Below, piece after piece: positions 43,527 through 58,070 of a DNA stretch of 64,000 nt. A program made the position numbers and the translations under genes. Source of the stretch: Spirochaetota bacterium (GTDB taxonomy: Bacteria; Spirochaetota; UBA6919; CBDBPB01); the NCBI GenBank assembly GCA_965208615.1, contig CBDBPB010000007.1, positions 96,001 through 160,000 of the forward strand. Reading direction: 5' to 3'. The stretch's first letter is position 1. Every line of letters starts with the position of its first letter. The notes under the pieces were generated by a model. It was given only the letters and a program-made list of their open reading frames with translations, was not told where the DNA came from and did not search any database.

Positions 43527-44936
43527 CTAACCCACCTTCTCAATGAAGATTTGAGCATAGATAGCCTTAAGACCAGTGGGAGGTGTACGTCTATTAGAGG
43601 ATGCTACGCCTAACGTTTCTTTGGGATTTGGAGCTTCCTTTAGAACATAGTGCTCTAGTTTAAAGTTGTCATCTGAAGAGATATTCAATACCCCTATCAA
43701 ATGCGATCTTGTTTGTACACTTTCAATATCAGAATACTCCCATGAGCCGTTTATTGTTTTTCCTCTATCGCTTTTAATTCTAAAAGTGTGCTTTTGTACT
43801 CGAATAGCTGGTGCAGAAGCTCGAATTTTATATATCCCTTTTGGTAATGTAAATTCGTTTTTAGGCTTATCTAATTTTAATCCTGCTATGTTAGTGTCTA
43901 TTTTGTTTAGCTCTCTAGTTGTCCAGGCATTATCTTTAGCTTCACCACCACCTATTCCCATGTGTCTATTTACATCAAGTTCATGCCATATTTTAGCGTA
44001 TTCATATTTTAGCTTTGGTGGAGTGATGGCACCATTAGCTATCTTAGCCGTTTTGATAGCATTATCAGCTACCTTAGTCTTTGTGATGGCACCATTAGCT
44101 ATTTTAGGCGTTGTGATGGCCTCACTATCTACCTTATCCTTTGTGATGGCACCATTAGCTATCTTATTCGTTGTGATGGCATCATCAGCTACCTTAGCCC
44201 TTATGATGGTATTATCAGGTATCTTATCCGTTGTGATGGCACCATTAGCTATTTTAGGCGTTGTGATGGCACCATCAGCTACCTTAGCCGTTTTGATGGC
44301 TTCATTAGCTATTTTAGGCGTTGTGATGGCACCATCAGCTACCTTAGCCGTTTTGATGGCTTCATCAGGGATCTTACTTTCTATAACAGTATCGTCTGCT
44401 ATCTCATAAACGCCTTTTTTTAGCGTTGACTTTTGTCTGGTGATTTCTATTTTTTTATAAGTCCCGTCTGATATGGCTTTTATGATTATCTTTCCGCATA
44501 AAACGCCATGTTCACTTTTATGCTCGTGATCATTAGTATCTTTAACAAGGCTTATTTCAGCAGCAAAACTGCTGTACTCATGCTCTTTAGTAAAAGGGTC
44601 TTCTGATATTTCAGTAGTCTTTACGTCCTCAACAGCTTTTAGGTATACATAGTACTCACCGTACTCAGAGGGCATTGAATGGGTTTTATCCTTGTCTAAA
44701 GAGGCATAATTTCCATTGTAATAAAATCCGTTAGGACAGCTTGTTATTTTTATTTTATCGGTACCTACGGTTTCTATTAATCCGTGATCAGTACCAAGGG
44801 GAGTGCAAAAGCCATCGGTCATATACTTTTCTACATTTCTTTTGATACGACTGCTAAGCTCATCCATAGTGTTAGTCCAATCTGTATCGAAAAACTTTAT
44901 AGGCTTATCCAGATTCCCAAGTTTTAAATATCCCAT
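43527..44936 (-). CDS. Tail fibre 3: shared N-terminal adaptor, decapeptide repeat shaft, beta-sandwich-like tip
   Basis: N-terminus near-identical to 45551..48058 and 49068..50507; ITTxKIAxGA repeats; distinct C-terminal domain. Confidence 0.75.
   Translation of the reverse strand: MGYLKLGNLDKPIKFFDTDWTNTMDELSSRIKRNVEKYMTDGFCTPLGTDHGLIETVGTDKIKITSCPNGFYYNGNYASLDKDKTHSMPSEYGEYYVYLKAVEDVKTTEISEDPFTKEHEYSSFAAEISLVKDTNDHEHKSEHGVLCGKIIIKAISDGTYKKIEITRQKSTLKKGVYEIADDTVIESKIPDEAIKTAKVADGAITTPKIANEAIKTAKVADGAITTPKIANGAITTDKIPDNTIIRAKVADDAITTNKIANGAITKDKVDSEAITTPKIANGAITKTKVADNAIKTAKIANGAITPPKLKYEYAKIWHELDVNRHMGIGGGEAKDNAWTTRELNKIDTNIAGLKLDKPKNEFTLPKGIYKIRASAPAIRVQKHTFRIKSDRGKTINGSWEYSDIESVQTRSHLIGVLNISSDDNFKLEHYVLKEAPNPKETLGVASSNRRTPPTGLKAIYAQIFIEKVG
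44021..44380 (-). repeat. 30-bp tandem repeat (~12 units) encoding AITTxK(I/V)AxG/D
   Basis: Units like TTGTGATGGCACCATTAGCTATCTTA every 30 nt; related arrays at ~47400-47490 and ~49630-49920. Confidence 0.9.
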
Positions 44937-44962
44937 GTTATATCCTTTAATGAATAAAATTT

Positions 44963-45532
44963 CTAATCCATGTTTATAATGTTTTTAATTTTGTTGTTAT
45001 ATGTGATCCACTTGCTTAAATTAGAATTGGGATCACGAGTTAAAGTTTTTAGCTTTCTCTTTAAGGATGACATTGTAAGAGAGTGCATTATTGTATTAAT
45101 GAGGGTATCCATAGCCTTACGGTTTAGAGATAGTTCTTTGGATGTCTCAAAAGCCTCAGCTATATTAGTTTTAGCCCTTAACTTTTTCTGATCAACATAG
45201 TCAGGATGATTTTTGATTTCTTGATCACTTCGTTTTTTTACGGTTACCTTCATGTTAGGTAGTTCTGAATGATATTTCTTTCTTCGATGATATTTTTCGT
45301 AATCATCTATATGGTGATATTCCTTTCTTAGTCTTGGATCATATTTTTCATAATCCTCATGATCAAGGTTTTCCATAGTATTTGGGTCTATGTAGTACAC
45401 ATATACGTCGTCTTTTATTGGATTAAATTGTTCGTCAAAGACATCTGGATTATTAACTAAAATATAATCCCCATACCGTCCTCTATGATCAATGTCAACA
45501 ACGTTGTTATTATTATCTATTCTTACAAACAT
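44963..45532 (-). CDS. Hypothetical protein, possible tail-fibre chaperone
   Basis: 189 aa between two fibre genes, beta-rich N-terminus MFVRIDNNNNV. Confidence 0.45.
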   Translation of the reverse strand: MFVRIDNNNNVVDIDHRGRYGDYILVNNPDVFDEQFNPIKDDVYVYYIDPNTMENLDHEDYEKYDPRLRKEYHHIDDYEKYHRRKKYHSELPNMKVTVKKRSDQEIKNHPDYVDQKKLRAKTNIAEAFETSKELSLNRKAMDTLINTIMHSLTMSSLKRKLKTLTRDPNSNLSKWITYNNKIKNIINMD

Positions 45533-45550
45533 AATTCCCTCTTTTTATAT

Positions 45551-48058
45551 TTAATAGTCTATAATGTGGGACTTAGCAACTACTGCCCTAAGGTCAGAGC
45601 TATATTTGCCCCATCTTTGTGTTTCCCACTTTTCGCCTTTAGAGGAGCTAAGGATATTGTCATAATCTCCCACAGCTATGAACTTATTATTACCGTATGC
45701 AACTCCCGCTAAGCCACGAAGCGTATCGTTTGTTTTAACCCATGTTATGCCATCATTAGAGCTAAAGATATAGCCATACACTCCTCCCACAGCTATGAAC
45801 TTATTATTTGCATAGGCAACTCCCCTTAAGTATTTATAAGTGAAGTTTTCGTTATTATCCTTTTCATTCACTATTTTAGTCCAGCTTTCGCCGTCAGAGG
45901 AGCTAAGGATAGTGCCATACGTTCCCACAGCTATGAACTTATTATTTGCATAGGCAACTCCCTCTAAGTATTTATCAGTGAAGTTTTTGTTATTATCCTT
46001 TTCATTCACTATTTTAGTCCAGCTTTCGCCGTCAGAGGAGCTAAGGATAGTGCCACCACTTCCCACAGCTATGAACTTATTGTTACCGTATGCAACTCCA
46101 TTTAAGTAATTAGTAGTTTCACTTGTTTGTTTAGTCCAGCTTTTGCCATCATAGGAGCTAAGGATAGTGCCATTTTCTCCCACAGCTATGAACTTATTAT
46201 TTGCATAGACAACTCCACTTAAACCGTCACATTTTTCAATTATCTCCCACTTTTCATTATCAGAGGAGCTAAGGATAGTGCCATCCCACCCCACAGCTAT
46301 GAACTTATTATTTGCATAGGCAACTCCACTTAAACCGTCACATTTTTCAATTATCTCCCACTTTTCATTATCAGAGGAGCTAAGGATAGTGCCATCCCAC
46401 CCCACAGCTATGAACTTATTATTTGCATAGACAACTCCACTTAAACTGTCACATTTTTCAATTATCTCCCACTTTTCATTATCAGAGGAGCTAAGGATAG
46501 TGCCATTTTCTCCCACAGCTATGAACTTATTATTTACATAGGCAACTCCCTCTAAGTCATAACTCGTACCGCTTGTTTGTTTAGTCCAGCTTGTGCCATC
46601 AGAGGAGCTAAGGATAGTGCCATACGTTCCCACAGCTATGAACTTATTATTTGCATAGGCAACTCCCTCTAAGTATTTATCAGTGAAGTTTTTGTTATTA
46701 TCCTTTTCATTCACTATTTTAGTCCAGCTTTCGCCGTCAGAGGAGCTAAGGATAGTGCCATTATTACCCACAGCTATGAACTTATTATTAATATATGCAA
46801 CTCCATATAAGCTATTAGTAGTTTCACTTGTTTGTTTAGTCCAAGTTTTTTCATCATCAGAGGAGCTAAGGATAGTGCCACCACTTCCCACAGCTATGAA
46901 CTTATTATTACCGTATGCAACTCCCTGTAACCATTCAGTAGTTTTACTTGTTTGTTCAGTCCAGCTTTCGCCGTTATTAGATGAGCTAAGGATAGCGCCA
47001 CTTGATCCCACAGCTATGAACTTATTATTACCGTATGCAACTCCATATAAGCTATTACTCGCATCGTATGTTTCAACCCATGTTATGCCATCATAGGAGC
47101 TAAGGATATCGCTATACTTTCCCACAGCTATGAACTTATTATTACCATAGGCAACTCCATTTAAATTGTTATATTGTTTAGCTCTCTCCCACTTTTCTCC
47201 ATCATAGGAGCTGAGGGTAGTGCCTTCTCCCACTATTATATAATTTACTCCAGTTACAGCTTTAATCCTTGATAGGAGATAGTTCATTTGTTCTTCTATT
47301 GTTTTATGGTCTATACTACCTTTTAAGTGTTTCTGCTTAGTCCTACTAAAATAAATGTCTTCACCTGTTAGAGAGGTTTTGTCAGTGTCACGTTTTACTT
47401 TATTCGTTGTGATGGCTTTATCGTTTACCTTATCCGTTGTGATGGCATCATTAGCTATCTTAGCCCTTGTGATGGCATTATTGACTATCTGAGGGGTGTT
47501 AACGGTTTTGTCCTTTAGGGTTGACTTTTGTCTGTCAGTGTTTAGTATTTCTATCTTTCCGCTAGAAAGCTTTATCTTCCCGCATAAAACTCCATATTCA
47601 CTTTTATGCTTGTGATCATTAACAGCTTTAAGAAAATGTATCTCAGGCTTAAAACTGCTATACTCATGATCCTTAGTAAGAGGGTCTTCTGGTATTTTAA
47701 TGGCTTCTACGTTTTCAACAGCTTTTAGGTATACGTAATAATCCCCATCCTTAGGGGGTTCACCGTCCTTAGAGGGTATTGAGGAGGTTGTATCCTCGTT
47801 TAAAGAGGCATAATTTCCATTGTGATAGAATCCATTTGGACATTTGCTTATTTTGATCGTATTCGGTTGATCAGTCTTTATTATTTTGCCCTCGTTATCC
47901 CCAAGGGGAGTGCAAAAGCCATCGGTCATATACTTTTCTACATTTCTTTTGATACGACCGCTAAGCTCATCCATAGTGTTAGTCCAGTCGGTGTCGAAAA
48001 ACTTTATAGGCTTATCCAACTCATCAAGTTTTAGATATCCCCTTTTTGTATCTCCCAT
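45551..48058 (-). CDS. Tail fibre 2: shared adaptor plus BNR/Asp-box-like beta-propeller repeat array (likely start MGDTK at 48058)
   Basis: AAGGAG RBS before 48058; about 13 repeats of LxGVAYxNNKFIAVGxxGTILSSSDGxxW. Confidence 0.8.
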   Translation of the reverse strand: MGDTKRGYLKLDELDKPIKFFDTDWTNTMDELSGRIKRNVEKYMTDGFCTPLGDNEGKIIKTDQPNTIKISKCPNGFYHNGNYASLNEDTTSSIPSKDGEPPKDGDYYVYLKAVENVEAIKIPEDPLTKDHEYSSFKPEIHFLKAVNDHKHKSEYGVLCGKIKLSSGKIEILNTDRQKSTLKDKTVNTPQIVNNAITRAKIANDAITTDKVNDKAITTNKVKRDTDKTSLTGEDIYFSRTKQKHLKGSIDHKTIEEQMNYLLSRIKAVTGVNYIIVGEGTTLSSYDGEKWERAKQYNNLNGVAYGNNKFIAVGKYSDILSSYDGITWVETYDASNSLYGVAYGNNKFIAVGSSGAILSSSNNGESWTEQTSKTTEWLQGVAYGNNKFIAVGSGGTILSSSDDEKTWTKQTSETTNSLYGVAYINNKFIAVGNNGTILSSSDGESWTKIVNEKDNNKNFTDKYLEGVAYANNKFIAVGTYGTILSSSDGTSWTKQTSGTSYDLEGVAYVNNKFIAVGENGTILSSSDNEKWEIIEKCDSLSGVVYANNKFIAVGWDGTILSSSDNEKWEIIEKCDGLSGVAYANNKFIAVGWDGTILSSSDNEKWEIIEKCDGLSGVVYANNKFIAVGENGTILSSYDGKSWTKQTSETTNYLNGVAYGNNKFIAVGSGGTILSSSDGESWTKIVNEKDNNKNFTDKYLEGVAYANNKFIAVGTYGTILSSSDGESWTKIVNEKDNNENFTYKYLRGVAYANNKFIAVGGVYGYIFSSNDGITWVKTNDTLRGLAGVAYGNNKFIAVGDYDNILSSSKGEKWETQRWGKYSSDLRAVVAKSHIIDY
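45600..47240 (-). repeat. Beta-propeller blade repeats (111-141 bp), including three near-identical 111-bp units at ~46153-46540
   Basis: Core CCCACAGCTATGAACTTATTATT and GAGCTAAGGATAGTGCC recur in nearly every unit. Confidence 0.9.
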
Positions 48059-48154
48059 TTTTGTCTCCTTGAACAAAATAGTTAACTTTTCTGGTTTTAT
48101 TGTTATACCCCTTGCTAAGGTATAACCAGTATCCAAAAGGCTATGCCGATCTAA

Positions 48155-49057
48155 CTAAATGGATATGTTTATCTTAGCTAAAGTATTCAACTTTTTAGCC
48201 CTCAATAAGGATTTTTTAAGTTTATCAGCCTTTTCATCGAGATCAAGTTTTTGTTTAATCTCCTCAAAAGACTGCTTTAGCATGTTGGAGTCTATATCTT
48301 TCTTTTTACTTTTGTCTAGCTTTAACTCATCCACTAAATTATTATGTTCCCTAATGGCTATAACCCTTTGGGATGCCAATTGTAATTCATTACTAAGGCT
48401 AATCTGCTTATCCTTTAAGGCATTAAGCCTTTCTTTGCGTAACTCTTCAATATCCTTTGCCTCAATAAAGGTCTTTTTGTCCTTGTCATATTTAGGCTTT
48501 AATAATTTATCATCAGGATTAATATCAACCCATTTCTGATCAGTAAAATATATGTCGGATAAGTCTATATCCTTAGTCGTTACAAATCCATCATTGTCCA
48601 AAACCGTAACCTTTTTATTAGCCTCTTCCCATTCGCTCTTCGTTTTATTCCATTTTGCTAACTTTAAATCCTTATTAGGCTCTTTAAAAGGCAGATCAGG
48701 CACCTTATCAAAGCATCCACCCTCATTAAGGTCATTTAAGAAGTATCCGTCTTTGTCGATCTTATAAGACGGCTCAGGGATATAATAAGCCTGATCCCAA
48801 TGGCCTTCTATCGCCATATAGTTGTCCCATATCCATCTGTCAACCTTATTAGCCATTCGCCAATCAAGACTTTTTAGTTTAGACTCATATTCGTCACTAT
48901 GCTCAAAAGGGGAATTGTTAAGCTTAGGCTCAAGTTCTGTAGCATCAGACGGCACCTGAGGATCGTTAGAGTTAGGTAATGGCAAAGCCTTACTAGAGTG
49001 TTTATATACCCCATTTTCAGCATCAAAAAAGTATATCGTTGTGTTAGACATATTCAT
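48155..49057 (-). CDS. Tail fibre assembly chaperone-like protein (Tfa-type N-terminus)
   Basis: IYFFDAENGVY....VPSDATELEP; immediately downstream of the collar-domain fibre. Confidence 0.6.
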   Translation of the reverse strand: MNMSNTTIYFFDAENGVYKHSSKALPLPNSNDPQVPSDATELEPKLNNSPFEHSDEYESKLKSLDWRMANKVDRWIWDNYMAIEGHWDQAYYIPEPSYKIDKDGYFLNDLNEGGCFDKVPDLPFKEPNKDLKLAKWNKTKSEWEEANKKVTVLDNDGFVTTKDIDLSDIYFTDQKWVDINPDDKLLKPKYDKDKKTFIEAKDIEELRKERLNALKDKQISLSNELQLASQRVIAIREHNNLVDELKLDKSKKKDIDSNMLKQSFEEIKQKLDLDEKADKLKKSLLRAKKLNTLAKINISI

Positions 49058-49067
49058 ATCAATCTCC

Positions 49068-50507
49068 TTAACCTAATTTAATAAAACAATTAAAAGCAAT
49101 ATTCTTCATACGAGTCTCAGACGCAGTACGAACAGTGCCATAGGTTGATGAGTAGGTTACTGCGTTGCCAAGATTGGCTTTGCCTGACCTTGTGTTAAGA
49201 TTAAAAACCCTAAAAGCCGTTCGAGATCGACGTGTTGCAGTATACCCACCCCCTGTTTGCCATCTCCAGCCAGTAAGTTCATAATCACCTTTACTATGGT
49301 TTATAACCTCATGCCTATGCCCAGGGTCATGATGCTTATGTCCTTGAAGGGCGTCGTCTTGTCTTGAGCCTAATTCTCTTCTTGAATCAGGACCAGTACT
49401 TTCCGTATTAGTAAACCTTATACCATATCCCCTTGTGTCTGGTAAACGAAACTGAGTACTATTAGAGCCAAACTTAGTACCTATTCTATCGTAAGTTTTA
49501 CGATAGGTTGACTTTGAAACAGGCTGGCCATGACATGGAACAAAGGTTGGATCAGGGTGGCTTACGTCAAAAGTCATTATAATATCACCTGGCCTAAAAG
49601 CTGACGTATCCTTGTGTAGTTTGTCAAAGGTGATAGTGTTGTCAGCTATCTTGCTTTCTGTAATGGCACTATTGTTTATCTTACTCGTTGTGATGGCATT
49701 ATTGTCTATTTTATCCGTTGTGATAGCATCACTAGCTACCTTATACGTTGTGATGGCATCATTAGCTATCTTATTCGTTGTGATGGCATCATTAGCTACC
49801 TTAGCCCTTGTGATGGCATCATTAGCTATCTTATTCGTTGTGATGGCATTATCAAGTATCTTAGGCGTTGTGATAGCACCATTAGCTATCTTATCTGTTG
49901 TGATGGAATTATTAAGGATCTTACTTGCTATAACAGTTTTGTCTGCTATCTCATAAACGCCTTTTTTTAGCGTTGACTTTTGTCTGTTGATTTCTATTTC
50001 TTTATAAGTCCCGTCTGATATGGCTATCTTCCCGCATAAAACTCCATATTCACTTTTATGCTTGTGATCATTAGTACCTTCAACAAGGTTTATTTCAGCA
50101 GCAAAACTGCTATACTCATGCTTTTTAGTAAAAGGGTCTTCTTGTATTTCAGTAGTCTTTACGTCCTCAACAGCTTTTAGGTATGCGTAATAATCCCCAT
50201 CACTTTTGCCGTCTATGCTGAACTCTTTATCTTCTTTTAAGTCAGCGTAGTTACCATTGTGATAAAATCCGTTAGGACAGCTTGTTATTTTTATTTTATC
50301 GGTACTTACGGTTTCTATTAATCCGTCATCAGTACCAAGGGGAGTGCAAAAGCCATCGGTCATATACTTTTCTACATTTTTTTTAATACGACCACTAAGC
50401 TCATCCATAGTGTTAGTCCAGTCGGTATCGAAAAACTTAATAGGCTTATCCAGCTCTCCAAGTTTTAGATATCCCATTTTTGTATCTCCCATGTTTGTAT
50501 CTCCCAT
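49068..50507 (-). CDS. Tail fibre 1: shared adaptor, decapeptide shaft, tail-collar domain and HxH tip
   Basis: PGDIIM...CHGQPVSKSTY...IGTKFG...FRLPDTRG..R, QDDALQGHKH, GHRH, ETRMKNIAFNCFIK. Confidence 0.85.
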   Translation of the reverse strand: MGDTNMGDTKMGYLKLGELDKPIKFFDTDWTNTMDELSGRIKKNVEKYMTDGFCTPLGTDDGLIETVSTDKIKITSCPNGFYHNGNYADLKEDKEFSIDGKSDGDYYAYLKAVEDVKTTEIQEDPFTKKHEYSSFAAEINLVEGTNDHKHKSEYGVLCGKIAISDGTYKEIEINRQKSTLKKGVYEIADKTVIASKILNNSITTDKIANGAITTPKILDNAITTNKIANDAITRAKVANDAITTNKIANDAITTYKVASDAITTDKIDNNAITTSKINNSAITESKIADNTITFDKLHKDTSAFRPGDIIMTFDVSHPDPTFVPCHGQPVSKSTYRKTYDRIGTKFGSNSTQFRLPDTRGYGIRFTNTESTGPDSRRELGSRQDDALQGHKHHDPGHRHEVINHSKGDYELTGWRWQTGGGYTATRRSRTAFRVFNLNTRSGKANLGNAVTYSSTYGTVRTASETRMKNIAFNCFIKLG

Positions 50508-50543
50508 TTTTGTCTCCTTACTTTTTGCTGCAGATTAAACAAT

Positions 50544-52344
50544 CTAGGACCTAATAGCCACTCCGTAAAGTTCATCTCCATTTTCTACGTCTCTTTGTAT
50601 TTCCCAGTTTTCGCCGTCAGAGGAACTAAGTATAGTCTCTTTATCCCCCACAGCTATGAACTTATTATTTGCATAGGCAACTTTGTATAACCGTTTATCA
50701 GTGAAGTTTTTGTTATTATCCTTATCTATTATTTTAGTCCAATCTTTGTCGTCATTAGATGAGCTAAGGATAGTGCCACTCTTTCCCACAGCTATGAACT
50801 TATTATTACCGTATGAAACTCCCTCTAAGTCTTTATCAGTGAAGTTTTTGTTATTATCCTTTTCATTCACTATTTTAGTCCAGCTTTCGCCGTTATTAGA
50901 TGAGCTAAGGATAGTGCCATCCGCTCCCACAGCTATGAACTTATTATTACCGTATGAAACTCCCTCTAACTGATTAGTAGTTTCACTTGTTTGTTTAGTC
51001 CAAGTTTTTTCATTATCAGAGGAGCTAAGGATAGTGCCACTCTTTCCCACAGCTATAAACTTATTATTACCGTATGCAACTCCATATAAGTACTTCTCAG
51101 TGAACTTTTTGTTATCCTTATCTAGTATTTTAGTCCATATTTTTTCATTATCAGAGGAGCTAAGGATCCTACCCCAGTCTCCCACAGCTATGAACTTATT
51201 ATTTCCATAGGCAACTTCATTTAAGTAATTAGTAGTTCCACTTGTTTGTTCAGTCCAGCTTTCGCCGTCAGAGGAGCTAAGGATAGTGCCACCCGCTCCC
51301 ACAGCTATGAACTTATTATTACCGTATGCAACTTCATGTAAGGCTTTATCAGTAAAGTTTTTGTTACCATCATCTTTATTTACTATTTTAGTCCAATCTT
51401 TGCCATCATTAGAGCCAAGGATAGAACCACTTTTTCCCACAACTATATAGTTTATTTCAGTAATAGATTCAATATAGTACTCATATCCAGGGACTCTTTT
51501 CTTTAATATAGATTTAAGCTCATCTATAGATTTAAGTTCCTTATTAGTAGACGGGTTGGGTTTAGATTTAAGTTTATATTCATGTGAATCTTTTTAGTTT
51601 TCTTTATTCCGTTTACGTTCTAATTGGTTGTACTTAAGTTTATAGTGGTCCAATATCTTTTTTATAGCCTTTTTACCTGTATAAGGCATGAGGTAAACAC
51701 CTTGATAAGGCTCAACAATATCATCAAGGGTTCTTTTAATGAGGTCTATATTTATACCAGGCATATTGAAGAAGCGTATATAAGCTCTGGACCAAGTTCT
51801 CTTATGTGAGGTAATAAAGCTAAGTTTTTCGCTTTTGTCTTCGTCACTATTTTCGCTTTTGTTTTTAAGAATTCTAATGGTAAGATCGTGTTCATCATCA
51901 ATTGAATTTATATTTAAGTTTTTACTATAAAACTCTAAAAACTTTTTAATAGCCTCTCTTGGTATACCAGGGCTATTAGCACTATTAATCATTATCTCCT
52001 TGATTTTCTCTATATGTTTTCTAAAGTCACTATCTGATTCTTCTTTAACCTCTTTATTTTTAACCTCATCCTTACGACTAACTCCGTATAACTGGCCTAT
52101 AAGGTCTAAAAACCTTTTCTCAGCAGTATTCAAAAATAGTTGTTTGGCAAGGTAGTTTATCTTTTTTAGTGAGCGATCCTTAATTAGAATATCAAATATG
52201 GTATTATGGAACTTATAGATATTCGATTTCTTAGTAAGGCTGGTTATAGTAGGGGGGACAGTTACTCCAAACGTCTTTGTCAAAAGTTATATCCACCTCT
52301 GGAGCTGTTTTCTCAGTATCATCTGAATTAGCTGGATTACTCAT
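50544..52344 (-). CDS. gpI-like baseplate wedge protein apparently fused to a beta-propeller; interrupted by a +1 indel (~52240) and an in-frame TAA (51594-51596)
   Basis: ATG at 52344 overlaps the gpJ TGA; LFLNTAEKRFLDLIGQLYGVSR..ESDSDFR; the 229-aa and 298-aa ORFs share a frame with 51 open codons between them. Confidence 0.65.
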
Positions 52345-53670
52345 CTTGGAACCTCATTAAAATCTTCAAACTTTAACTTAGGCCAACCTTTATCTTTATA
52401 ATAATCTATTATAATATTAGGCTTAGGATCAATAATCCCTTTATTAATATCAATATCCTTCCAAGGCTGACCAGTATCGCTATCATTATTAGGAATCTTT
52501 ATGGAACCAGTCTTAATATTAAAAACATTAGGAGCGTTTATAATAAAGCTTTCCATTTTTTCTTTAACAAAGACATCTCCTGGATTAAACTTATTAAAAT
52601 ATTGATCAAGTGCATCTTTAATATCTTTTTCAAGGGGTTTAGTTTTTCTATAGTATATAGTAAGTTCAATTTTAATTGGTTGTACTTCAGCAAGACTTAC
52701 AAAAGCTCTCCAGTTAGCTAATGGCTTATGCTCTTTAGCATTAATCTTATTTTCGATATCTTTAGGATTAATACTAGCATTACTAGAGTCCTTATATCCT
52801 CTTACAATAATCCCAACAGAACCTTCACCATGCATTCGTGGTACAATCTTTGCTTCTTTTACTAATTCTTGTGATTCAGCTTTAGCTTTAAACCATCCAA
52901 TAGATCCCTCTACTGAACCGCTAGCACTATGTATGATTCTTTGTCTAAAATCGTCATCGCTTTCTTTGTCTATACCTCCTCCGATAATGCTTTTATTTCT
53001 TACATAATCAAAATGTTGAACAGCGGTTGATATTTCTGTTATCATTGCCCCATTTATACTTATCCCCGCCTTTTAAGGCTATTACAGGCACTTCTACACG
53101 ATATACCTTTTTATCATCGTCATCAATGGTATTATCCTCATAAGGCTTGGTTTCTTCATTAATTTCAACATCATTTAGTGTTTTAAACTTCAAAGGCTCA
53201 TTGTTAATAGTACTTTTAGCAGCCACAATATTACCTTTCTTAAATGTATAAGTGATTTTAGGCTTAGTGGTAGCACCAACATACACCTTTCCAACGGCAT
53301 TAGTTAGGATTTTACGCTCTATACTATATCTTTGTGCATGTAGGTCAAGCCATTCGTCTTCAGCGGTCTGTACAAGCATTTGTTTTTTAAGCTCTTCAAT
53401 ACCCTTATCTAAGACTTCATACTGCATGAGGGCGAATATCTTTAACACTCTCATTATTTTACCTTGTGGTCTTAAGTTAGAGATACTTTTATCATCACTT
53501 TCATTATCAGGTTTAACAACATTATTATAAAAACGAGTAATTAAGTCCTCTAACAAGTCGTTAAACTCGGGTTCTTTTTCGATTATACTATCTAACAACA
53601 AGTTATAATCGCTTCGTGATAACTTCTTATCTTCGATAAGCTTTACTATTTCTTTTACACTTTCATTCAT
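52341..53670 (-). CDS. Baseplate J/gp47-family protein; +1 indel at ~53054
   Basis: QTAEDEWLDLHAQRYSIER, VIALKGGDKYN, GGGIDKESDDDFRQRI, PRMHGEGSVGI; two ORFs join into 442 aa. Confidence 0.85.
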
Positions 53671-54080
53671 TAATATTCCTCCAAAGCATTATTAATAATA
53701 TTGACTTTCAAAGTGCTAATGTTAATCCTGTCATCCATGCTAAGCCAATTTTCTATATTTTGTTTAAGCTCAATAGCGGTTCCTTTAGTATAAGTCCGAT
53801 TTTTAAACTTCCAAATATCATTACCCTCTTGGACGTCGATAATATCATCGAAATATTTAAGTCTAAATCCCTCTATTAAGTCCTGTTCCAGAGCCTTTTT
53901 TCCATCAGCTATCTGCCAATCGTTTGTATATTCATTCGGAGCTATCACAAAGCTCCAGTCTTCTGGAATCTTTCTACTATATTTGTCAGCCTCAGTATAG
54001 CATAGAATGTCATTATCTAGGTTATCATCAACAACGTCGAATGATAACTCAATTTTATAATCTCCAATATTAAACTCCAT
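53670..54080 (-). CDS. Putative gpW/gp25/gp46-like baseplate protein
   Basis: Lies between spike and gpJ; DW..ADG..ALEQDL and L.MDDRI motifs. Confidence 0.55.
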   Translation of the reverse strand: MEFNIGDYKIELSFDVVDDNLDNDILCYTEADKYSRKIPEDWSFVIAPNEYTNDWQIADGKKALEQDLIEGFRLKYFDDIIDVQEGNDIWKFKNRTYTKGTAIELKQNIENWLSMDDRINISTLKVNIINNALEEY

Positions 54081-54089
54081 ATAATTCTC

Positions 54090-54707
54090 CTACTCTAAAA
54101 CAACTTTTTTAGATTCAACTTCATTAGAAGTGACAAAAATAGGTTTCTCAGGGATCTTTACAGCACCATTCCCAATAAAAAAATGAGAATGACTATTAAA
54201 CTCCTTGACAATTTTATCAATAATCTTTTTAAGAGGTCCAGCAAGAACAGCCTTCTCACTGTCACCAGCAAGTTTAATCTTGTCTGCCTCTAGGACAATG
54301 TTATCCTTAGCCTTAATGTTAATATCCTTTTCTTTTGCGGTAATGGCTATTCCATCTTTTTTTGCCGTTATATTTACGGTTTTTTCAGCGAGGATAATAT
54401 ACTCCTCCACCTCTGAAAACTGTATAACAGCCCAGTCATTCTCTTCTTCAGATTCAAAATGAAGGGGTATAACGCTTACCATGGAGTCTTTTTTAGGGAT
54501 AACCAATATACCGCTTTTATTAATGGGAGTTAATTTAGCCTCTACTATCGGAGCCGATTGATCCTCTGGGTCAACATCACATACGTATATGCCTTTGTCA
54601 TCATCTTTTTTAACAGACTTAACAATTCCCCTCTTTCCACCTTTTTGATGGATTACCACATTAACTAAGTCCGTAAAAACATCTGTAAAACTACGATTAC
54701 CTGTCAT
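54090..54707 (-). CDS. Baseplate spike (gpV/gp45-like); likely start MTGNR at 54707
   Basis: OB-fold-like IPKKDSMVSV, beta-helix repeats (ITAK/IKAK), C-terminal FNSHSH (HxH metal tip). Confidence 0.75.
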   Translation of the reverse strand: MTGNRSFTDVFTDLVNVVIHQKGGKRGIVKSVKKDDDKGIYVCDVDPEDQSAPIVEAKLTPINKSGILVIPKKDSMVSVIPLHFESEEENDWAVIQFSEVEEYIILAEKTVNITAKKDGIAITAKEKDINIKAKDNIVLEADKIKLAGDSEKAVLAGPLKKIIDKIVKEFNSHSHFFIGNGAVKIPEKPIFVTSNEVESKKVVLE

Positions 54708-54744
54708 GGAATAACCTCTATTATGAAAAGCCATAGTGATTTAT

Positions 54745-54823
54745 ATAAAAGCTAATGTAGAAACCTGATAAGGCAAGTACACTTATGCTATATATGCTAT
54801 ATATGCTACCTTTCTAAAAAAGT
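54745..54823 (-). promoter_or_regulatory. 79-bp conserved intergenic element, copy 1 (upstream of the spike gene)
   Basis: Near-identical to 57883-57961; contains three tandem TAGCATA(TA/AG) 9-mers. Confidence 0.7.
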
Positions 54824-54977
54824 GATAAAAATCTATGATATTTTAAAAGGCTAATAGTCTTTTCAGCAAAATAACACTGTCTTTTTTGTACAAAAGCTAA
54901 AATGTGATAAGTTAAAACAATAGGTTAAAAGAGAGATTAACAGCAGTATAGGGTTAAAATCAAAGGCTAAAACCTCA

Positions 54978-56834
54978 TCAGCTTTCAGTTCTAATTTGTC
55001 GAGCATCTCTTCTAATTTGTTCAACATCTCTTCTAATACTTTCTTCGAGACAATTCTTAGCATCCCACCCCTCGTATGAGCCTATCCAGTTGGGGTTTTG
55101 CTTATATGCATTAATATTATGTAGATTATTAAAAAGTTGCCAACCCCATTCAATAGCTCTACCAGAATGGGGATTCATGCCATAATAAGGCTTATTTTCA
55201 CATTCATCATGAGCAGCATAATTAAAAATAGCCTTGACTAACGCTATATCTATACCGCCGGATAGTTGGAATGCAGCAGCCAATAATATAGTCTTCCTCA
55301 AATCTAAGGTTATACCTAAGGTTTCCCCACGTGTAGCCATATGCATACCAAAGAAAAAGTTTCCTAACTCTTTGACTGTCATATAATAGTTATAACAATG
55401 AACGCCGTTAAAGTGTTTACCAGAGCCTCCGCCGTATTCTTTTAAATTTTTAAAGTCATAGATTTGGTTAGTTCGAGAATTCATGATTGTTGTAACTATA
55501 TTATCACTAACTGCAGGACTAAGAAAACCGCTTATCTTATCGCTATAATCGTATATTTTTATAGTGCCTTTTGTATTACTTTCCCTATCCATAAAGGAGT
55601 CCCAAAATATAGTTTCACCTATATACATACCCGTATGATCATATACTTCATTAGAACCCTCATTCACAGCTATAACCTTACGATCCTTATCAATATAGGT
55701 GCCAGGTTTAGAGGTATCAACCTTTTTATTTTGTTCATCTTTTTTATCTTGCTCATCTTTTTTATCTTGGTCATCTTTTTTAGGCTGTGCTGGCTTTTTA
55801 TTTTGTGTTGCCTTAGTTAGGGCACTAGGTTTTTTAGGTATATAGCCGGATTTTTTACCTACTATAACCTCAGTACCTGGTTTTGGGAAATAATGGTTAA
55901 CTCCGTCTAGGGGTACGTTATAGCTATCTTCATCGAGTTTTTGATTTAGTAAGTCAGAGCCCTTTTGTTTTAGGATAACCTCGGATAATAAGTTAATTGT
56001 TGGATCTAGTCCTGTTTTAACGGATCCCACTAAACCTGATGAGCTTAGGTTTTTATATATTTTATTGGCAAGAAGAGGTAGTTCATTTTTGCTTAATCCT
56101 GGTTCAAAGTAGTTATAAGCGTTTTTACCGCTACCTTTTTTAGCAATATTGACTTTTCTTTTTTCATCTTTGCCAATGACGGATACTTCTAAATCCGATA
56201 TACCCTTATCCATCTTAAGATCGTTTGTATTGGTGGATAGGTCTATATTATTGGAACTTATAATTTGTCCCTTTTTCCCATACTTTTTAATACTAGGTTT
56301 TATAAAGCTGTACTTATTGCCGTAATAAAGTTGTTTGCCTATTAGAAACCATTCTCCAAAGGCTTTAGTGGCCAACCTATTTATTATATACCTAACTGAT
56401 CTGTTTGTAAAGGATAATACCTTATACTTATTTATCTTTTTCACATTGGAGGTAATAATACTAACGCCTTTAACCTCGGATATTATATTTTTAATAATTT
56501 CGTCATCACTCATATCCTTAAAGGTTTTGGTAATTTTGTTTTGAGCAAATTTATAACTATAGTCCTCGCATTCTATACGTATAGAGTCTTGGAGAATATT
56601 AACATCCGTAATTACTCCCTCAAAGACCTCTTCAATGTTATTGTTATGTCCAAGGGATACTATAATAGTATTTTCTTTTTCATAGGGATAGCTATCCCTT
56701 CCGCCTTTTTTAAAGAGTTCCACAACGCAGCTATTAGGACGGTTAAGCCTTGTATTTTGAACATGTAGAGATTTTATAATATCTTGTTCAACGCTGTTAT
56801 TAGCGATTTTTATTTTTGCTTTAAAGACTAACAT
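54978..56834 (-). CDS. gpD/gp27-like baseplate hub with low-complexity linker and C-terminal polymorphic-toxin-like domain
   Basis: IVSLGH...VFEGVITDV...IECED hub motif; KKDDQD/KKDEQD/KKDEQN linker; YDFK and GNFFFG motifs. Confidence 0.7.
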   Translation of the reverse strand: MLVFKAKIKIANNSVEQDIIKSLHVQNTRLNRPNSCVVELFKKGGRDSYPYEKENTIIVSLGHNNNIEEVFEGVITDVNILQDSIRIECEDYSYKFAQNKITKTFKDMSDDEIIKNIISEVKGVSIITSNVKKINKYKVLSFTNRSVRYIINRLATKAFGEWFLIGKQLYYGNKYSFIKPSIKKYGKKGQIISSNNIDLSTNTNDLKMDKGISDLEVSVIGKDEKRKVNIAKKGSGKNAYNYFEPGLSKNELPLLANKIYKNLSSSGLVGSVKTGLDPTINLLSEVILKQKGSDLLNQKLDEDSYNVPLDGVNHYFPKPGTEVIVGKKSGYIPKKPSALTKATQNKKPAQPKKDDQDKKDEQDKKDEQNKKVDTSKPGTYIDKDRKVIAVNEGSNEVYDHTGMYIGETIFWDSFMDRESNTKGTIKIYDYSDKISGFLSPAVSDNIVTTIMNSRTNQIYDFKNLKEYGGGSGKHFNGVHCYNYYMTVKELGNFFFGMHMATRGETLGITLDLRKTILLAAAFQLSGGIDIALVKAIFNYAAHDECENKPYYGMNPHSGRAIEWGWQLFNNLHNINAYKQNPNWIGSYEGWDAKNCLEESIRRDVEQIRRDARQIRTES

Positions 56835-56837
56835 TTT

Positions 56838-57842
56838 TTATATCTCTTTGTTTTTAGCAAGGGCGGGTAGTGTTATTATAATGCCCTCGATTAGTTTAAT
56901 GTAATTATTTGCTTTTCTAATTTTTTTAGCATGTCTTGTGTCATTATAATATGCGTTAGCTATGCTAAAATATGTATCGCCTTTTTTTACAACATATTCC
57001 TTGTCTTTCTTGGGGATTATTGGTATTTTAGCGGTTTTACCTGTATTACCAAGATCTTTAGCCTTTTTCATATCACCGTCTTGTATGGCCTTAAGGATTT
57101 TTTTTAATTCTGTTACCTTATTTTCTTCTAGTCCGAGTGTGTCTTTTGCAAATCCTAGAATTTCAGTAACGCCTTCAAAGCCTTTAACAGCCTTATTAAC
57201 GTATTTATTAAGTTCATCAACTTCTTCTTTGCTAGATGTTTTTCCTTGTAGGATAGAGAGTAATGGATGAGCTCCCATATCTTTATTAATTTTTAAGAAC
57301 TCTTTTTCTAAAGTATGATCTCCGAATACGTCAGCGGCTATTTTTGCAAAGTCATCGCCTTTTTTCAGTATCAGTTTTGAATATTTATTAGCTTTTTTTA
57401 TGCCGTTTATTACTTTTACAATTCCACCTATGGATTCGCTTAGGAATGAGGGAGTACTAGTCTTAGATTTATCTTCCACACACTCGATTCTCATGTCTCT
57501 TGCCGAGTCTATCCCCTCTACGGTGGATATATAATGATTTTCTATAATAACTTTTTTAATATCGTGATTTTCGGTTTCTATTGATACCATAGATAAAGAC
57601 TCTAGTTTTTTAGCCAGATCCCTTATCAATTTAATTTGTTTATTTAGGGATAGGTTATCTGTAGATATAAGACGTCCTGTAATGGTAACTTTAAAGTCGT
57701 TCCATCCTGTTTGACGTTTTACACCATTTTGAGTAGTTATTATTTTACCTCCGCCATGAACCTTAACATCGCATGGACAGGGGATGTCTACTCCACCAAG
57801 CTTAACTTTATTTTGAGGATCTATTTTATAATATTTACCCAT
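56838..57842 (-). CDS. Tail tube-initiator/gpU-X-like protein with two LysM-like domains (likely start MGKYY)
   Basis: YVVKKGDTYFSIANAYY and ILKKGDDFAKIAADVFGD; DFKVTITGRL. Confidence 0.75.
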   Translation of the reverse strand: MGKYYKIDPQNKVKLGGVDIPCPCDVKVHGGGKIITTQNGVKRQTGWNDFKVTITGRLISTDNLSLNKQIKLIRDLAKKLESLSMVSIETENHDIKKVIIENHYISTVEGIDSARDMRIECVEDKSKTSTPSFLSESIGGIVKVINGIKKANKYSKLILKKGDDFAKIAADVFGDHTLEKEFLKINKDMGAHPLLSILQGKTSSKEEVDELNKYVNKAVKGFEGVTEILGFAKDTLGLEENKVTELKKILKAIQDGDMKKAKDLGNTGKTAKIPIIPKKDKEYVVKKGDTYFSIANAYYNDTRHAKKIRKANNYIKLIEGIIITLPALAKNKEI

Positions 57843-57882
57843 GGTGTTTTTCCTTTTATTTTGCAGGATTTGATGATAATAC

Positions 57883-57961
57883 ATAAAAGCTAATGTAGAA
57901 AATTGATAAGACAAGCACACTTATGCTATATATGCTATATATGCTACCTTTCAGAAAAAGT
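57883..57961 (-). promoter_or_regulatory. 79-bp conserved intergenic element, copy 2 (upstream of the LysM gene)
   Basis: Near-identical to 54745-54823. Confidence 0.7.
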
Positions 57962-58054
57962 ACGAGTTTTTTTTTTAAGAAGATAATCTTCAAAATGACA
58001 AAATTTATCATTTTCGATTTTATAGTCTAAATGCGGTTCAGTTGATATATTGTA

Positions 58055-58070
58055 GGGGGGGGGGGGAGGG
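58055..58070. repeat. G12AGGG homopolymeric tract
   Basis: GGGGGGGGGGGGAGGG immediately after the stop of 58071..58949. Confidence 0.85.

Follow-up and report, generated by a model that had tools for sequence, protein, structure and literature searches.

A predicted tail baseplate hub of a Spirochaetota bacterium that ends in a domain of the Rhs and CdiA toxin type

There is a gene in a Spirochaetota bacterium that raises the question of whether the hub of a phage-derived tail can carry a toxin. It lies in a stretch of 64,000 nucleotides (contig CBDBPB010000007.1, positions 96,001 to 160,000 of the forward strand), which is called the window here and is numbered from its first letter. The gene, at 54978-56834 on the minus strand, belongs to a cluster of tail genes without head genes. 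Its product joins a predicted baseplate hub to a domain that is related to the C-terminal toxin domains of Rhs and CdiA proteins. It is proposed, with a probability of about one half, that this is an 'evolved hub': the hub of a head-less phage-tail-like particle would carry a toxin domain of the Rhs/CdiA type at the tip of the tube. The gene can be divided as follows.

54978..56834, minus strand: whole open reading frame (ORF) of 618 amino acids, made up of a baseplate hub part, a linker, a toxin-derived domain, and a C-terminal tail; it ends in a stop codon at 54978-54980

55875..56834, minus strand: hub domain, residues 1-320, gpD/gp27-like, assigned by PHROG 4930, by 39% identity to a 326-residue prophage hub, and by alignment

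55707..55874, minus strand: linker rich in Lys, Pro, Asp, Glu, and Gln, residues 321-376, which holds an 18-bp tandem repeat

55131..55706, minus strand: toxin-derived domain, residues 377-568, assigned by homology to Rhs and CdiA C-terminal domains and by an AlphaFold model (predicted local distance difference test, pLDDT, 80.8; predicted template modelling score, pTM, 0.80)

54981..55130, minus strand: extra C-terminal tail, residues 569-618, assigned by alignment, Tandem Repeats Finder (TRF), and model; absent from most relatives

The translation of 54978-56834 on the minus strand is one uninterrupted ORF of 618 codons. It is intact, in a region with a G+C content of about 34%. An original prediction for this gene, made from the letters of the window, had quoted the motifs GTYID, VIAV, VY, IGET, WDSF, YDFK, LGNFFFG, PYYG, and SGR, and all of them are found in the translation. 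It had also described a gpD-like hub of about 320 residues, which was confirmed. The PHROG 4930 'baseplate hub' profile matched residues 1-289 with an E value of 1.9e-16 over profile positions 1-279 of 319, and the hub part can be aligned with two hub relatives up to about residue 320. None of the models in the Pfam scan matched the hub part. By its sequence, the gene product is a central baseplate hub of the type of gpD in phage P2 and gp27 in phage T4.

The linker with an 18-bp repeat that was expected after the hub was located by TRF at 55723-55782 (3.3 copies, 92% matches, score 99), and the repeat codes for DKKDEQ-type units. A domain of about 240 residues had been placed behind it, in a span of 54978-55850. 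This span corresponds to residues of about 329-618 and takes in linker, domain, tail, and stop codon. The C-terminal part is real, and it resolves into a domain of about 190 residues and a tail of 50 residues. The tail holds a 21-bp repeat (54989-55037, 2.3 copies by TRF) that codes for EQIRRD units, and it is predicted to be helical (helix 224-249 of the first AlphaFold model). In a second assembly, of a public run that is probably the source of the window itself and thus no independent sample, one contig spans 54785-57000 with 0 differences. Because this contig is identical across the interval, the fusion junction is not an artefact of the present assembly.

The relatives of the C-terminal domain were explored through several searches. 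As a single sequence against 1.84 billion representatives, it found seven proteins at E <= 0.001. The top match, a Big_1/invasin repeat protein (P0002), was dropped as a repeat artefact, as it matched in six short stretches only. Over the full length of the domain, identity is about 30% for the remaining six. One is a 1928-residue RHS-repeat protein that has the domain at residues 1769-1926, straight after a DPxG motif, and two are fragments of RHS ends. A profile search gave 14 further proteins, including a partial 'RHS repeat-associated core domain' protein and fragments with DUF637 and PT-VENN, which are CdiA pre-toxin modules. Among longer proteins, the search gave a 2075-residue protein with haemagglutinin repeats and PT-VENN, RHS proteins of 1974 and 1809 residues, and one weak match. 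In the Rhs and CdiA proteins, the related domains form the very C-terminal end. The domain of the hub starts exactly where the Rhs C-terminal domains start, after DPxG.

A likeness to the C-terminal tips of RHS proteins had been noted in the original prediction. It was borne out, and CdiA can be added to it. A profile of 58 relatives, which excludes the hub itself so that the test is not circular, scored the hub at 80.6 bits; the best of 500 shuffled C-terminal parts reached 4.5 bits. When one genome per species was scanned, the domain was found at 79 loci, mostly in Bacteroidota. Judged by homology, the domain is a complete polymorphic-toxin C-terminal domain as found at the tips of Rhs and CdiA, and its family is unnamed. 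Pfam and NCBIfam scans of the C-terminal domain gave nothing at E <= 10. Against the PDB sequences, phmmer gave noise only (best E value of 0.02, to a streptavidin hybrid), and with tblastn no counterpart of the domain turned up in 50,697 phage records. None of 60 relatives of the organism gave a match to the domain, and the organism's own genome gave no second copy. In IMG/VR, the domain profile found one locus (L099), on a 39.8-kb contig classed as viral. This is a Rhs-type C-terminus with a shortened copy of the domain and is not a hub.

The original prediction had pointed to Ntox44, a predicted RNase toxin, on account of its DxK and GNxxxG motifs. These motifs agree with the definition in Zhang et al. 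(2012, PMC3482391), where Ntox44 is a predicted RNase toxin that is all-alpha and has DxK, GNxxxG, and DxxxD. Two of the three motifs are present in the hub. DxK is D460-F-K462, with the D and the K each in 57 of 59 family members, and it is in register with the WDHK/WDFK of Ntox44. GNxxxG is G491-N492-FFF-G496, with the G and the N in all 59 members, in register with (G/S)NIHYG. DxxxD is not kept. At the position of the first Asp, the family has one Glu, without a conserved acid four positions on (+4), and the hub has Met there. In addition, the Pfam model PF15607 (gathering cut-off 24 bits) gave no match at E <= 10 to the domain of the hub or to seven family members. It gave no match at E <= 0.001 in the organism's own genome, and none of three Bacteroidota genomes that carry the family matched.

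Remote homology to Ntox44 is nevertheless suggested in both directions. With 59 family sequences against nine Ntox44 sequences, hhalign gave a probability of 67.3% in local mode (E value of 5.1e-5, 100 columns) and 74.1% in global mode, with the motifs in register. These values supersede the 3.7% that was obtained with thinner input, an 18-row alignment against seven Ntox44 sequences. A hidden Markov model (HMM) of the family placed three of the nine Ntox44 sequences (26.8, 14.1, and 10.5 bits) above all 900 shuffles (maximum 6.4). In the other direction, an HMM of Ntox44 placed six of the 59 family members above all 1180 shuffles (maximum 7.7), and the hub scored 11.5 bits. A feature search with the Atlas protein language model also put Ntox44 clusters at the top (score 0.92, 27 of 30 matches), a weak recognition that is below the threshold of the tool. 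Two AlphaFold models of the domain agree with each other (pLDDT 74.8 and 80.8, pTM 0.70 and 0.80). They have five short strands followed by a helical core, at domain residues of about 63-204, that is broken by one beta-hairpin. The predicted N-terminal beta-strand part may set the domain apart from the all-alpha definition of Ntox44. The domain family looks like a sister family or distant relative of Ntox44 and not like a member by the Pfam test. The proposed link to Ntox44 is supported in part: DxK, GNxxxG, and the signs of remote homology speak for it, and the PF15607 result and DxxxD speak against it.

The genes that follow the toxins can indicate where the toxins act. Among the 79 genome loci, the 47 whose match reached the end of the domain were examined. 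An ORF of at least 60 residues that starts from -30 to +400 nt of the toxin stop is present at 45 of them, mostly within about 15 nt. One BLAST family of about 140-160 residues, for which there is no Pfam model, accounts for 23 of the 45, and the remainder are small groups. Four were left out as second halves of split toxins. A strongly hydrophobic N-terminus, defined as a 15-residue N-terminal stretch with a mean hydropathy of at least 1.8, was found in 34 of the 41 genes that were kept, and 17 of the 41 have a lipobox-like motif. For true Ntox44 genes, the following or overlapping ORF has a hydrophobic N-terminus at eight of nine loci (L085-L098), several of which are closely related. From the effectors of type VI secretion systems (T6SS) and contact-dependent inhibition (CDI), it is known as a rule that an exported immunity protein goes with a toxin that acts in the periplasm or on the membrane. 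Since the downstream ORFs mostly have the N-terminus of a signal, lipoprotein, or membrane anchor, the target would therefore lie outside the cytoplasm. This suggests that the family acts on the envelope (periplasm or membrane) and not on RNA, and it goes against the RNase activity of the original prediction. No assay of any Ntox44 member was found in the accessible text of the literature searched. The 'RNase' label of Ntox44 is itself a prediction; the immunity-gene data speak against it and it may be wrong.

The hub gene has no comparable neighbour. The next gene is the spike, which starts at 54734 after a gap of 243 nt, and this gap has no immunity gene, just a 66-residue ORF that overlaps the 3' end of the hub gene. 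It had been foreseen both that no convincing immunity ORF follows and that the toxin is fused to the hub and not to the spike. The spike is a separate gene of 214 residues. The 66-residue ORF (54863-55063, minus strand) is in another frame, shares 86 nt with the end of the hub gene, and has a hydrophobic end. It is probably not a gene. A degraded immunity gene in the gap was considered as well. It was rejected on account of an 82-nt repeated element that lies there, in the place that an immunity gene would take, and of the lack of a match to the immunity profile in six frames, in a search without a positive control.

The cluster around the hub was compared with a complete myovirus prophage that lies about 300 kb away on the same contig (C7 ~438,600-459,500; L104, L105). 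The genes in the window that were compared or assigned are the following.

56838..57920, minus strand: LysM/DUF6046 protein, gpX-like glue or tube-initiator region, precedes the hub (LysM E value of 3.1e-6; DUF6046 E value of 1.4e-5, below cut-off)

54090..54734, minus strand: spike, gpV-like, 214 residues, follows the hub (52% identity to the prophage spike; DUF2345 E value of 0.004, below cut-off)

53670-54080, minus strand: wedge protein, gp25-like (paralog identity 69%)

52341-53670, minus strand: wedge protein, gpJ-like (Pfam Baseplate_J, E value of 2.1e-14), two ORFs in the present assembly

51594-52283, minus strand: wedge protein, gpI-like (paralog identity 68%)

43527..51440, minus strand: fibre/receptor-binding genes, namely a 298-residue propeller, a 479-residue collar fibre, a 300-residue protein, an 861-residue fibre with propeller repeats, a 189-residue protein, and a 469-residue fibre (Pfam Collar, DUF6242, PSII_BNR)

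The gene order on the minus strand is LysM/DUF6046, hub, spike, gp25-like, gpJ-like, gpI-like, and fibre/propeller genes. The prophage has genes for terminase, portal, protease, major head protein, sheath, a 919-residue tape measure, LysM, hub, spike, gp25, gpJ, gpI, and fibre, and from LysM to the fibres the two orders are the same gene for gene. The hub of the prophage has 326 residues, and its stop overlaps the start of the spike. The wedge genes of the window (51594..54080) match PHROG 6 and others. Upstream, beyond the end of the window, there are a 135-residue ORF at the tube position, a sheath (PHROG 907), an endolysin-like gene (PHROG 894), and a repressor. Genes for terminase, portal, and capsid were not found between the repressor and the bounding host genes trxB/glyS/gyrB. 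Identity to the prophage is 81% for the tube-position ORF, 76% for a 143-residue ORF, 69% for gp25, 68% for gpI, 67% for the sheath, 52% for the spike, 47-52% for gpJ, 39% for the hub, and 38% for the LysM protein. This last value applies from residue 27, which is probably the true start of the LysM protein. From these comparisons, the cluster in the window is a tail-only paralog of the prophage.

In the present assembly, gpJ is split between ORFs of 220 and 234 residues that overlap (53008-53053 region). In the second assembly, at a depth of 3.6, a short homopolymer run is one letter shorter at 53053, and this gives a single gpJ of 442 codons; the gpJ of the prophage has 409 residues. The frameshift is probably a homopolymer assembly error in one of the two assemblies. 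As the break is gone in the second assembly, the cluster need not be decaying.

Six other hubs were recovered. In addition to the prophage hub, there is a hub of 347 residues in one relative only among 40 genomes, and a search with an alignment of three hubs gave three distant viral hubs of about 310-330 residues and one metagenome hub, which is identical to the hub of the relative (G002). It had been suggested to check whether homologous hubs vary at their C-termini. None of the six has a C-terminal extension, and no extended hub was found in IMG/VR with a single hub sequence as the query. Lys- or Arg-rich ends are present in three hubs, those of the window, the prophage, and the relative. 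Because the related hubs end in short basic tails, the linker in the window looks like an expansion of an ancestral basic hub tail. In the relative, the tail of the hub reaches up to about 40 residues and reads KKKAKKK...RRGRRRGRRKRK (hub loci L003:522-1565 and L004:1501-2481).

How the fusion could work can be considered by analogy with phage P2. As described in a preprint (bioRxiv 10.64898/2026.09.14.750843), three gpD form the hub above the gpV spike, and the P2 tube crosses the outer membrane and stops short of the inner one. If the tail genes of the window give rise to a particle, a trimeric hub between tube and spike would place three toxin domains per particle at the tip of the tube. 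Contraction of the sheath would drive the tip across the outer layers of the target, after which the domain would come free or be exposed within the target envelope, where it could act if it is still toxic. The producer would make the protein in its cytoplasm, away from an envelope target, and would be spared without an immunity gene. It is proposed that this is why the immunity gene is missing. A wider proposal, which is put forward only tentatively, is that the hub is a further, undescribed carrier of polymorphic toxins, in addition to the delivery routes listed by Zhang et al. (2012), that the tailocin-like particle, with three toxin copies on its hub, kills by an envelope-acting enzyme as well as by puncture with no immunity needed, and that the Ntox44 superfamily acts on the envelope, with a fold that lacks a solved relative, and not as an RNase.

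Several results weigh against the evolved hub. A homolog of the tape measure was not found in the cluster by BLAST with the 919-residue protein of the prophage or by PHROG, although a highly diverged one is possible. Because no tape measure is recognisable, the assembly of a working tail is not assured. With the model of the domain, Foldseek against the PDB gave nothing at E <= 0.001. VIA-align of the two models against 48,161 chains gave best Z scores of 4.5 and 4.4, both to unrelated helical proteins. BFVD gave nothing at E <= 0.001. The absence of structural matches does not show a new fold. There is no convincing solved counterpart, and the activity is therefore not readable from the structure. 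A match to a peptidoglycan hydrolase or to a structural fold had been named in the original prediction as a finding that would speak against a toxin, and no convincing match of either kind was given by Foldseek, VIA-align, or phmmer. The immunity profile gave 0 matches at E <= 1 in six frames of the genome, in a search without a positive control.

A second fusion of a hub and a toxin was not found by sequence, profile, IMG/VR, or phage-record searches either, and there is therefore no comparative evidence for selection on the fusion. The profile searches for fusions covered proteins of 89-599 and 759-2165 residues. Fusions of 600-758 residues were covered by the single-sequence search alone, a word-indexed search with residues 370-618 against proteins of 339-1082 residues, which gave no match. 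A published fusion of this kind was not found in the accessible text of the literature searched. Thus far, a hub as toxin carrier has been found described nowhere else in these databases and in this literature, with a gap at 600-758 residues in the profile searches.

The remaining result that weighs against a working toxin is in the domain itself, and it was overlooked in the original prediction. The conserved set of the family is S, D-x-K, G-N-x-x-x-G, G, P-x-Y-G-E, R, and G. The hub copy keeps D460, K462, G491, N492, G496, P549, Y551, G552, R559, and G564, and it deviates at the Glu and at one Gly only. In the 59-sequence alignment, the hub has Met553 where 58 of the 58 other members have Glu, and Ala520 where 58 of 58 have Gly. 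The Glu column lies directly after P-x-Y-G. In the hhalign register, its counterpart in Ntox44 is the first Asp of DxxxD.

55176..55178, minus strand: ATG codon of Met553, from the column counts of the 59-sequence alignment and the hhalign register; the same in the second assembly

A change from GAA or GAG to ATG takes two base changes. The hub copy is both without a neighbouring immunity gene and without the invariant acid. Because this Glu, which aligns with the Asp of Ntox44, is lost, the toxin domain of the hub may be catalytically dead. The other conserved positions are kept, which suggests that the fold is still under constraint.

It is possible, though with a good deal of doubt, that the domain has been disarmed and exapted. 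It would have lost catalysis with the change of Glu to Met and would now serve at the tail tip for binding or as a structural module, for example by holding a component of the target envelope, and any killing would be by puncture. The replacement of the two positions that are otherwise invariant, the two base changes that the codon requires and its presence in both assemblies, the lack of an immunity gene next to the hub or in the genome, and the retention of the remaining conserved positions in what is probably a constrained fold all favour such a disarmed module. However, the catalytic role of the Glu in the family is putative, and no assay of any member was found in the accessible text of the literature searched. 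In addition, the missing immunity gene is equally explained by a periplasmic target and synthesis in the cytoplasm, as is proposed for the evolved hub.

Another alternative, which is considered unlikely, is that the domain is an enzyme of penetration. It would degrade a layer of the envelope locally so that the tube can pass, like the T4 gp5 lysozyme or the Tal lysins, and would not be a lethal cargo. The exported immunity proteins of the relatives do point to a substrate in the envelope. Phages also place such lysins on the hub next to the spike, as in T4 gp5 and the Tal of siphophages, where gp27-like hub or tip proteins are extended by an envelope-acting enzyme domain. However, the domain of the hub derives from toxin-immunity systems and has no likeness to known lysins. 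All of its relatives belong to toxin-immunity loci and not to phages; the 50,697 phage records and, at E <= 0.001, BFVD gave none, and none of the six other hubs, including that of the complete prophage, has such a domain. No match in fold or sequence to a solved peptidoglycan hydrolase was found, which does not amount to evidence against one.

A decaying prophage remnant in which the fusion is an accidental product of recombination that is no longer used would fit the lack of head genes and of a recognisable tape measure, the two ORFs of gpJ, the divergence of hub and LysM protein (38-39% compared with 52-81% for the others), and the loss of the invariant Glu, but it is improbable, as every compared tail ORF other than gpJ is open, including, at 25-39% G+C in the window, ORFs of 618 and 861 residues, gpJ is interrupted by one homopolymer letter, which the second assembly does not have, a conserved 82-nt element precedes three tail operons, and the cluster is flanked, like those of tailocins, by an endolysin-like gene and a repressor.

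The evolved hub can be compared with several known systems. One is the evolved VgrG of the T6SS, in which gp27-like and gp5-like parts form one chain and the effector is C-terminal, after the spike. In both cases, an effector is covalently fused to the C-terminus of a structural protein in the tip with which a contractile machine punctures its target, and the hub is a homolog (gp27/gpD) of the upper half of VgrG. In the window, however, hub and spike are separate genes and the effector is on the hub alone. The tail is also not a T6SS. It is prophage-derived, with sheath, tube, fibres, endolysin-like gene, and repressor, and has no immunity gene. The Rhs and CdiA toxins share the domain of about 190 residues, which is homologous over its full length to RHS and PT-VENN/DUF637 C-termini; these toxins are treated in Zhang et al. 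(2012, PMC3482391). Here the carrier is a tail hub and not a Rhs shell or a CdiA filament. The hub does not have a DPxG/VENN pre-toxin motif or an immunity gene, the Glu is lost, and there is an extra helical tail of 50 residues. Temperate phages have MuF-toxin fusions, in which a virion protein bears a polymorphic toxin at its C-terminus, presumably for delivery by the phage machinery (PMC3482391). The position of the toxin domain is the same as in the hub, at the C-terminus of a phage virion protein. MuF, however, is a head protein that is packaged in the capsid, whereas the hub belongs to the tail and to a head-less cluster.

The cluster also resembles R-type tailocins and the extracellular contractile injection systems (eCIS; Afp/PVC). 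Like these, it encodes a predicted head-less contractile tail with fibres and has an endolysin-like gene and a repressor nearby. To our knowledge, R-type tailocins do not carry toxin domains. The eCIS have separate cargo proteins, a VgrG-type spike, and an AAA+ ATPase. None of these was noticed in general scans of 21 ORFs, in which no search was aimed at their families.

Contractile machines are known to be armed by two routes, by fusion of the toxin to the spike (evolved VgrG, PAAR) or by cargo in the tube. A third route would be added if a toxin on the hub of a phage-derived tail works, and polymorphic-toxin cassettes would then be shown to be able to recombine onto phage structural genes beyond the MuF head protein. 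Tailocins are being engineered as narrow-spectrum antibacterials, and a working fusion would be a natural scaffold for an enzymatic payload. The 'RNase' label of Ntox44 in databases, relatives included, is called into question, and the structure and substrate of the family would be new biology. The loss of the Glu in the only copy without an immunity gene may show that the toxin was disarmed after capture.

The 82-nt element in the gap between hub and spike recurs in the genome. Two of its copies are in the window.

54742..54823, strand not assigned: 82-nt element in the hub-spike gap, 8 nt upstream of the spike start, a direct repeat that is 91% identical to 57880-57961

57880..57961, strand not assigned: second copy of the element, a direct repeat upstream of the LysM gene

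Another copy is just upstream of the 216-residue ORF that precedes the sheath (C7:162409-162486; L005:2409-2486), and one more is on another contig (C2:135909-135988). The copies have 78-91% identity and hold three TAGCATATA units on the minus strand. The element probably serves the tail cluster as a common late promoter or operator. Scanned for promoters and terminators, the hub-spike gap gave nothing above chance, and Rfam on 54600-58200 gave two matches, both under the gathering scores. The repeats were also considered as footprints of a mobile cassette, which was ruled out by the copies before other operons and on another contig.

Four paralogous ORFs of 552, 212, 566, and 292 residues (58071-63357, minus strand) occupy the place of the tape measure. 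They have 23-75% mutual identity and belong to no known family. On visual inspection, a single hydrophobic segment is seen in each, and a conserved region of the YHGM type comes after it. The set may comprise a tape measure that has diverged, together with its duplicates, or it may encode cargo of the tube lumen.

The fibre genes at 43527-51440 look like a diversified set for receptor binding. Their N-termini are 55-73% identical to the 544-residue fibre of the prophage. Among the fibres of 469, 479, and 861 residues, the N-termini are 56-72% identical to one another and the C-termini differ. Propeller repeats of the GVAYGNNKFIAVG type (DUF6242/YCF48-like) form long arrays in the ORFs of 861 and 298 residues. 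Between the tail cluster and the lysis and regulatory genes, there are five tandem paralogs of 106-132 residues on the plus strand (C7:162981-165193; L005:2981-5193). These possess identical N-termini, a variable number of 11-residue repeats of the DNKISDVENRL type, and a C-terminal hydrophobic segment.

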